From: a virus
Taxonomy: Duplodnaviria; Heunggongvirae; Uroviricota; Caudoviricetes
Length of the DNA stretch: 21,234 nucleotides
Strand: one strand, 5' to 3'
IMG/VR virus record: IMGVR_UViG_2537562190_000017
Each line of letters starts with the position of its first letter. Position 1 is the stretch's first letter. The notes below the pieces were generated by a model. It made no database searches, was not told where the DNA came from, and worked only from the letters and a program-made list of their open reading frames with translations. Made by a program: the position numbers and the translations under genes. This document shows, one piece after another, positions 11,592-12,293 of this stretch.

Positions 11592-11887
11592 TCACTGGTT
11601 GTCTCCTGGAAAATAACTGCATGCCCCAATTTCTCCGCCAGTGCCAGCTCTGCCTTAGCGCCCGCTGACCGCTGCCAGCCTTTCAGCATGTAAATCGCAT
11701 CCACACAACGAATCATTGCCATGCAAATATCCATGTAATGTGGCTGAGTCAGCCCGTCCGGAAGTACTGCCGGGTTTAAAACGGTATGCCCTTCCCGTTT
11801 CAGCGCTTCTTCCGCCTTGTGAAACGCATCACGGTTGAAATTTTCATATCCCGTCATCGGACCAGCGATATAAATTCTCACCCTCAC
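11588..11887 (-). CDS. DUF4406-family protein (nucleoside 2-deoxyribosyltransferase-like fold)
   Basis: MRVRIYIAGPMTGYENFNRDAFHKAEEALKREGHTVLNPA...GWQRSAGAKAELALAEKLG, the YIAGPM...NPA signature. GTG start overlaps the upstream stop (GTGA); AGGAGG upstream. Confidence 0.7.
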   Translation of the reverse strand: MRVRIYIAGPMTGYENFNRDAFHKAEEALKREGHTVLNPAVLPDGLTQPHYMDICMAMIRCVDAIYMLKGWQRSAGAKAELALAEKLGHAVIFQETTSD

Positions 11888-12138
11888 TCCATCACCTCCT
11901 GAAAATTACCCTGACAGAACGCCAGTACACGCTGCATGACTTCGCTATTTCGGCACTCACAGCAAATTATGTTCTTATGCCTGTCATAGCGGCGTATTTC
12001 TCCGTCTGGTAACTTTCGAATCAATGTCTGGTCAGTTGTTTTCTCCGGTGTCTTACGCCATACGCGATACACCTGTTCAGATGCAAAAACACCGTATTTA
12101 CCGGACATGTATAAATCGCCACAAGCCAGTACATCCAC
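11884..12138 (-). CDS. Hypothetical protein (Cys-containing); overlaps the next ORF upstream in the -1 frame
   Basis: Track ORF of 84 aa (GTG start at 12138; first ATG at 12108). Stop overlaps the DUF4406 start, suggesting translational coupling. Its 5' part overlaps the 3' part of ORF 12021..12278. Confidence 0.4.
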   Translation of the reverse strand: MDVLACGDLYMSGKYGVFASEQVYRVWRKTPEKTTDQTLIRKLPDGEIRRYDRHKNIICCECRNSEVMQRVLAFCQGNFQEVME

Positions 12139-12278
12139 AAGGCAACGTCTGACTGAATGCCAGCCTGTCCCGTCGCTCTCTCCAGTTGTGATATCGTCAT
12201 GCGTTCATTTTTGCGTACCAACCCGATAATTCGGGCCTTCAGTTCTTCACGCTGTTCGTGTGTAAAAGGTTTCGCCAT
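12021..12278 (-). CDS. Hypothetical small HTH-like protein (85 aa)
   Basis: ATG at 12278 with GGAGG SD 5 nt upstream; MAKPFTHEQREELKARIIGLVRKNERMTISQLERATGQAGIQSD.... The C-terminal 30 aa look less protein-like and overlap the downstream ORF. Confidence 0.4.
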   Translation of the reverse strand: MAKPFTHEQREELKARIIGLVRKNERMTISQLERATGQAGIQSDVALWMYWLVAIYTCPVNTVFLHLNRCIAYGVRHRRKQLTRH

Positions 12279-12293
12279 AAGCGCCTCCGGCAA

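Follow-up and report, generated by a model that had tools for sequence, protein, structure and literature searches.

Two overlapping reading frames at a DUF977 locus

The window (the whole 21,234-nt stretch of virus record IMGVR_UViG_2537562190_000017 that was analysed) carries YdaS/Cro-like, YdaT, O-like HTH, DnaC-like ATPase, DUF1627, DUF977 and DUF4406 genes in that order, and all genes in the DUF977 region lie on the minus strand. Two open reading frames (ORFs) occupy the DUF977 position: an upstream ORF of 85 aa that runs from ATG 12278 to a TGA at 12023-12021, and a downstream ORF of 84 aa that runs from GTG 12138 to a TGA at 11886-11884, its frame lying at +2, equivalent to -1, relative to the first. 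A GGAGG, read from the sequence, stands 6 nt before ATG 12278, which is the start used by RefSeq homologues, rather than the alternative TTG 12293 that directly follows the stop of the preceding DUF1627 gene and would lengthen the product to 90 aa. The layout described in an earlier note on this DNA was recovered: the two ORFs overlap in a -1 relationship on the minus strand, by 118 nt when counted from GTG 12138, and a GTTTTTG lies within the overlap at 12090-12084. The statement that the downstream ORF has no start after the end of the upstream ORF is only roughly true, in that in-frame ATG 11937, GTG 11895 and ATG 11892 do exist; these starts would yield peptides of at most 17 residues.

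The length of the overlap is in itself unremarkable: both frames are jointly open over 184 nt (12204..12021), a run of 47 open codons is expected in about 10% of random sequences ((61/64)^47), and the frame used by the tail of the upstream ORF is also open, and unused, in intact homologues (e.g., L018, L026 and L028). What is not due to chance is that both ORFs are halves of a single Pfam family, DUF977 (PF06163). Residues 1-38 of the upstream ORF match profile positions 1-38 with 61.9 bits, and residues 2-80 of the downstream ORF match positions 49-134 with 124.8 bits, both above the Pfam gathering score of 22.1 bits that sets family membership; residues 1-127 of the intact protein from Escherichia coli UTAK-6 match positions 1-134 with 221.9 bits. 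Because the first 38 profile positions lie on the upstream ORF and positions 49-134 on the downstream ORF, the frame breaks about 80 nt upstream of the GTTTTTG. The features of the locus and its neighbors are as follows:

14777-13794, minus strand: O-like HTH gene
13787-13041, minus strand: DnaC-like gene
13037-12294, minus strand: DUF1627 gene
12168..12278, minus strand: 5' part of the DUF977 / Ren-like gene, from ATG 12278, with codons 1-37 in the original frame (helices H1-H2)
12167..12168, minus strand: site of a single-base deletion, a G absent between A12168 and C12167 in codon 38
12021..12167, minus strand: out-of-frame tail of the upstream ORF (QAGIQSDV...TRH), then stop TGA 12023-12021
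11884..12167, minus strand: 3' part of the DUF977 gene in the -1 frame, with the rest of codon 38, codons 39-131 and stop TGA 11886-11884, encoding recognition helix H3, the wing and the C-terminal LPDGEIRRYDR..NIIC.ECR.SEVMQRVLAF domain (basis: Pfam DUF977 match, family alignment and predicted structure)
12084..12090, minus strand: GTTTTTG motif, not the frame break, read as Gly-Val-Phe (GGT GTT TTT) in intact genes
11884..11887, minus strand: GTGA stop/start overlap of DUF977 and DUF4406, the latter starting with GTG and spanning 11887..11588

Residues 39-131, read in the family frame, include LPDGEIRR and VLAFCQGNFQEVME, and the out-of-frame tail includes CIAYGVR.

A single missing G in codon 38

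The earlier note had proposed aligning the locus with its homologues, and when this was done these proved to be a single ORF throughout, with one G lost in the window. A megablast search with the 410 nt of the locus matched 1111 of 5426 complete E. coli genomes, and among the matches listed the region is annotated as a single CDS, "DUF977 family protein"; each of the best 40 matches is one base longer than the query. Within the 410 nt, the absent G is the sole difference between the window and its closest homologues, those of E. coli UTAK-6 and O111:H11 8D, such that 12168..12278 is identical between the window and the intact UTAK-6 gene. At column 127 of alignment A1, GGGAGCAGG of the intact gene has become GGGACAGG in the window, all five aligned homologues having either GGGAGCAGG or GGGGCTGG at this point, and the site lies outside any homopolymer. 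The coding sequence measures 396 nt (131 aa) in four of five fetched regions and 381 nt in the remaining one, from strain 2000-3039. The fusion of about 130 aa that the note had predicted thus agrees with the length of the 131-aa intact homologues. More broadly, the homologues examined form one gene of 130-141 aa, called "DUF977 family protein", and a protein search returned 474 clusters from E. coli, Shigella and Salmonella, with most of the 120 listed being 125-152 aa long.

In the family alignments, the two window frames align on opposite sides of codon 38. Beyond residue 38 the upstream ORF has no Pfam match, and its tail aligns to nothing in the family. Among eight distinct intact alleles, variable sites in the long frame fall at codon positions 1/2/3 in the proportion 20/15/47; if the overlap zone of the same alleles is read in the frame of the upstream ORF, variation would peak at codon position 2. 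The tail is accordingly not a conserved protein. Searches elsewhere added little: phage GenBank records yielded just three partial megablast matches, covering 29% of the query and annotated "LygF"; an exact 37/38-nt pattern for either allele had 0 matches among GTDB representative genomes; and NCBIfam contained no matching model for DUF977 or DUF4406.

We are therefore highly confident that both ORFs are the halves of one DUF977 gene of a lambdoid prophage that has lost one G in codon 38, i.e., a frameshift pseudogene. Because one DUF977 gene has lost a single G, the locus is read as such a pseudogene and not as a programmed frameshift or a nested gene, and of the explanations offered by the earlier note it was the indel that accounted for the two frames. 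A DUF977 member is one continuous ORF of about 130-141 aa, and the window gene is split at 12168/12167: it is a disrupted member of the family, a pseudogene. In the sequence of events that we propose, one accessory gene (DUF977, lambda Ren-like, winged-helix) of a lambdoid prophage lost the G between 12168 and 12167; translation from ATG 12278 then runs through 37 correct codons and 48 out-of-frame codons to the stop at 12021, and the remaining 93 codons persist as an apparently open ORF in the -1 frame.

Single-base gaps are the commonest assembly error, and the deletion was found in none of the 5426 complete E. coli genomes; nevertheless, it is very unlikely that the G was lost in sequencing or assembly and that the gene is intact in the organism. 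At least 20 contigs, which stem from independent projects, assemblies and assemblers (NCBI assemblies GCA_020732115.1, GCA_000752615.1, GCA_002515605.1, GCA_002461375.1 and GCA_921293745.1, JGI sample 3300028991, ENA ERZ28616544 and several Logan runs), have the same deletion, with identical surroundings and exactly the 85-aa truncated product, at a site that is not a homopolymer, and the intact parent allele (identical protein WP_001118162.1) could be recovered normally, on 180 contigs; two further intact alleles are each found on at least 1000. Ten loci with the truncated product were fetched, and none of the ten departs from the window within the 410 nt; in 3.2 to 4.9 kb of flanking sequence there are 1 to 54 differences from it, and the loci vary in their Cro-like and O-like genes and in the presence of the window's IS. 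When metagenomes were scanned with a pattern matching either allele, nine contigs were intact and two deleted (2/11). Nor is the assembly of the window prone to indels, as judged over 4.8 kb and 5.1 kb compared with UTAK-6: positions 10407-15216 are 98.9% identical to the UTAK-6 prophage, with 53 mismatches and, as the only gap, this deletion, and positions 16087-21234 are 99.8% identical with no gap. The number of contigs and the lack of any other indel in the window relative to its closest relative rule out sequencing error as the main explanation.

Given its occurrence on independent contigs with differing flanks and in metagenomes, and the otherwise indel-free window, the deletion is a genuine, heritable minority allele in several strains. 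The lack of any substitution between the allele and its intact parent marks it as recent, and it is at least tolerated, since it is found on at least 20 contigs and with two derived variants of the 85-aa product. Read in the true frame, one of the two changes in these variants is synonymous and the other non-synonymous, a number too small for a test of selection.

One further contig from a food metagenome (UOYZ01001085, our L021) has the same G deletion together with a linked window-type T 54 nt upstream. Its DUF977 allele is otherwise of the O157 type (cf. L018): a block of 186 nt is identical to the window, and outside this block the identity is about 87%. Another contig from the same metagenome (L023) has the window-type allele. 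The mosaic is either the result of gene conversion between co-resident prophages or a chimera of de Bruijn-graph assembly.

Residual function, separate genes and recoding

We consider it very doubtful that the deletion allele is anything other than simply dead, whether because the 85-aa fragment, in which H1-H2 of the winged helix are followed by an out-of-frame tail of hydrophobic character, is functional in itself, or because rare slippage of tRNA-Gly restores some full-length protein. If true, either would explain the spread of the allele to at least 20 contigs, and possibly its gene conversion into L021.

That the locus holds two real genes, as a nested or overlapping pair or as a functional split into N- and C-terminal proteins, is more improbable still. 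Both ORFs are open, each carries part of the Pfam domain and the allele persists in several strains, but neither GTG 12138 nor ATG 12108 is preceded by a Shine-Dalgarno sequence, and in no public contig did gene callers predict the downstream ORF; a search of public contigs for its 84-aa product as an exact record likewise returned nothing. None of the homologues examined has a pair of genes with separate starts, and the family members of odd length or short length that were read are frame-shifted or partial copies. Moreover, H2 and H3, which the split separates, belong to one winged-helix domain, and no sequence change after the deletion indicates adaptation. The nested gene suggested by the earlier note thus finds no support, its downstream starts having no Shine-Dalgarno sequence and its upstream tail not being a conserved protein.

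Comparably improbable is a leaky rescue, in which an occasional -1 slip of the P-site tRNA-Gly from GGA to GGG on C GGG ACA would produce full-length protein, with the change A38T, at a low level. The sequence at 12171-12166 would permit the tRNA-Gly to re-pair one base back, and the allele is tolerated and has spread; however, there is neither a stimulatory element nor conservation, and nothing in the data requires slippage. Spontaneous slippage of this sort normally stays well below 1%. We give equally little weight to what such a rescue implies, a hypomorphic rather than a null allele.

Least probable of all, to the point that we regard it as practically discounted, is a programmed -1 frameshift at or near the GTTTTTG (12090-12084) that fuses the ORFs into a protein of about 130 aa. 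The arrangement invites this reading: as at the programmed -1 sites of dnaX, IS3 orfAB and the tail-assembly genes G/GT, a 0-frame and a -1-frame ORF overlap around a T-rich run, the downstream frame is the -1 frame, and the length of the fusion would fit the family. At the motif itself, however, the resemblance to those sites ends. The upstream frame reads it as GT/G TTT TTG (the slash marking where the motif begins), so that G TTT TTG stands in the 0 frame and not as X XXY YYZ, and a scan of the upstream ORF found no canonical slippery heptamer anywhere within it. A 3' stimulatory structure is also missing: the 96 nt from just before the motif fold with -19.5 kcal/mol, against -20.0 +/- 3.2 for shuffled sequences (z = 0.15), and the stem predicted near the GTTTTTG contains the motif itself. 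Intact homologues have the same motif in frame and need no shift; the six aligned homologues all share the run GGTGTTTTT unchanged, with variation in the base that follows it. A shift at the motif would also come too late, since the break maps to the missing G about 80 nt upstream: residues 38-65 would become 28 out-of-frame residues, and this is the conserved stretch with the recognition helix and wing, which holds the most confidently modelled part of the protein. Finally, unlike at programmed sites, the two-frame layout is not conserved, homologues being single ORFs and other broken alleles being broken elsewhere, and a deletion outside the motif accounts for the change of frame.

These other broken alleles belong to six listed family members that leave the family frame elsewhere (P0069, P0052, P0053, P0047, P0056 and P0127), and from their sequences we read them as probable independent frameshift alleles. 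P0069 is broken at the T5 run of the GTTTTT motif, P0053 at about residue 72, and P0047 and P0056 after residue 80, in the protein's last third; in P0052 and P0127 it is the N-terminus that is out of frame. Because P0069 is broken exactly there, the T5 run is an indel site in another lineage. Such scattered breaks are what the decay of a dispensable prophage gene predicts, and the opposite of a conserved recoding site. As in other frameshift pseudogenes of decaying prophages, a single indel splits an accessory gene; the break in the window differs from those of the other DUF977 alleles in lying at codon 38, in a non-homopolymer sequence, and in being common to at least 20 contigs.

A Ren-like, predicted winged-helix family and its prophage setting

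DUF977 was assigned to the winged-helix DNA-binding folds by Kinch et al. (2009; PMC2686095). For the intact protein, an AlphaFold model based on an alignment of 77 sequences reaches a mean pLDDT of 77.7, with values above 90 over residues 11-70. H1 (residues 7-24) is followed in it by a short strand, by H2 (29-36) and H3 (40-53), and by a wing of two strands (57-65). The linker that follows the wing is of mixed confidence, with pLDDT below 50 over residues 81-89, and the C-terminal domain, which contains the near-invariant LPDGEIRRYDR..NIIC.ECR.SEVMQRVLAF motif, is modelled less confidently. A PDB search by sequence with the intact protein returned nothing significant, and a search at the level of the fold was needed: the top of the Foldseek list against the PDB consists mostly of winged-helix proteins (MntR, AraR/GntR, IclR and Z-alpha, with target TM scores up to 0.82), although some matches are methyltransferases. 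The model of the intact protein thus has both the H1-b1-H2-H3-b2-b3 topology and the matches to solved structures by which a winged helix is recognized.

In PHROGs the intact protein falls into phrog_142, "Ren-like exclusion protein" (E = 4.7e-43), and the gene also occupies the position of a ren gene, after the replication genes. Lambda Ren (NP_040633.1; L030:1781-2071) falls below the threshold of DUF977 and of every other Pfam family; profile comparison by hhalign nevertheless aligns it to DUF977 (alignment A3) with 95.8% probability and E = 6.7e-9, including the C-terminal ECRxSxxMxRVLA. Ren is transcribed from PR and is "likely involved in DNA replication" (bioRxiv 10.1101/2021.04.19.439022), and DUF977 similarly lies just downstream of the replication genes on the PR transcript. 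In contrast, lambda Ren has 96 aa and about 28% identity to DUF977 by BLASTP, and the lambda order is O, P, ren, whereas here the DUF1627 gene intervenes between the replication genes and DUF977. The likeness to Ren is one of sequence and position, and any role of DUF977 in Rex exclusion would follow from homology alone. From the model and these comparisons, the intact protein is predicted to be a winged-helix protein and a distant relative of lambda Ren.

The predicted structure places the break in the window at the turn between H2 and H3. Of the fold, the 85-aa product retains H1-H2, followed by 48 unrelated residues, and is without recognition helix, wing and C-terminal domain; because of these losses the window gene is most likely inactive, to judge from the modelled parts that are gone and from a 3' fragment that, having no ribosome-binding site, is probably not translated. 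The earlier note had the downstream frame translated into DUF4406 through the GTGA overlap, which is correct for the intact gene: the same 4-nt overlap occurs in UTAK-6 (CDS 3016-3411 and 3408-3707) and CREC-2. In the window allele, ribosomes on the upstream ORF stop 134 nt short of the DUF4406 start, from which we infer that the coupling is lost. DUF4406, whose protein matches its Pfam family with 126 bits, keeps its own Shine-Dalgarno sequence, AGGAGG at 11900-11895. The same protein (11588-11887, minus strand) matches phrog_355, "nucleoside 2-deoxyribosyltransferase", with E = 7e-48, which provides a functional lead for the gene that is translationally coupled to DUF977.

DUF977 proteins occur in lambdoid prophages of E. 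coli, Shigella and Salmonella, and the counterpart in UTAK-6 and 8D (WP_001118162.1) resembles the window gene in all but one base of the 410 nt, in its neighbors (DnaC-like ATPase, DUF1627, DUF977 and DUF4406) and in the GTGA overlap; it differs in having a product of 131 aa where the window has the truncated 85 aa. The protein of the adjacent DUF1627 gene (12294-13037, minus strand) has weak winged-helix-like matches and a faint match to phrog_142 over residues 77-126, and in one public protein (P0051) the C-terminus of DUF1627 is fused to DUF977. The neighboring DUF1627 and DUF977 genes may be related or act together. In the Rac prophage of K-12, ydaW (L029:3753-4313) lies at the syntenic position after ydaV, and Rac ends before any DUF977 gene; YdaW was rejected as the DUF977 member of Rac, being a truncated DUF1627 that covers profile positions 1-64 of 155.

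Other parts of the window depart further from the UTAK-6 prophage. Positions 9312-10406 are an insertion of about 1.09 kb that is absent from UTAK-6 and has a 6-bp target duplication, TCTCCT; its transposase ORF (9369-10415, plus strand) encodes 348 aa of the rve type, closest to IS481 (221.6 bits, cutoff 224), and four contigs (L012-L015) end within the insertion. Because it sits about 9 nt upstream of the position of the UTAK-6 Hok/Gef toxin gene, the insertion probably separates hok from its leader and promoter. In the immunity region (repressor/Cro side, about 0.9 kb), positions 15216-16087 have no megablast match to the UTAK-6 prophage, and the Cro-like genes of the ten fetched loci with the truncated product encode 75, 84 or 93 aa. 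Sequence comparison across these prophages indicates probable module exchange around a common replication and Ren-like block.

A pair of overlapping ORFs with a T-rich run can mimic a recoding site, and here it is the footprint of a one-base deletion. The value of the finding is mainly corrective: the gene is a known prophage accessory gene, and the allele an ordinary one-base-deletion pseudogene of a known family, such that in annotation both ORFs should be merged as one "DUF977 family protein, frameshifted" pseudogene. As a minor by-product, profile comparisons and the predicted structure link DUF977 proteins to lambda Ren by distant homology and give them an N-terminal winged helix and, at the C-terminus, a conserved motif that contains Cys.
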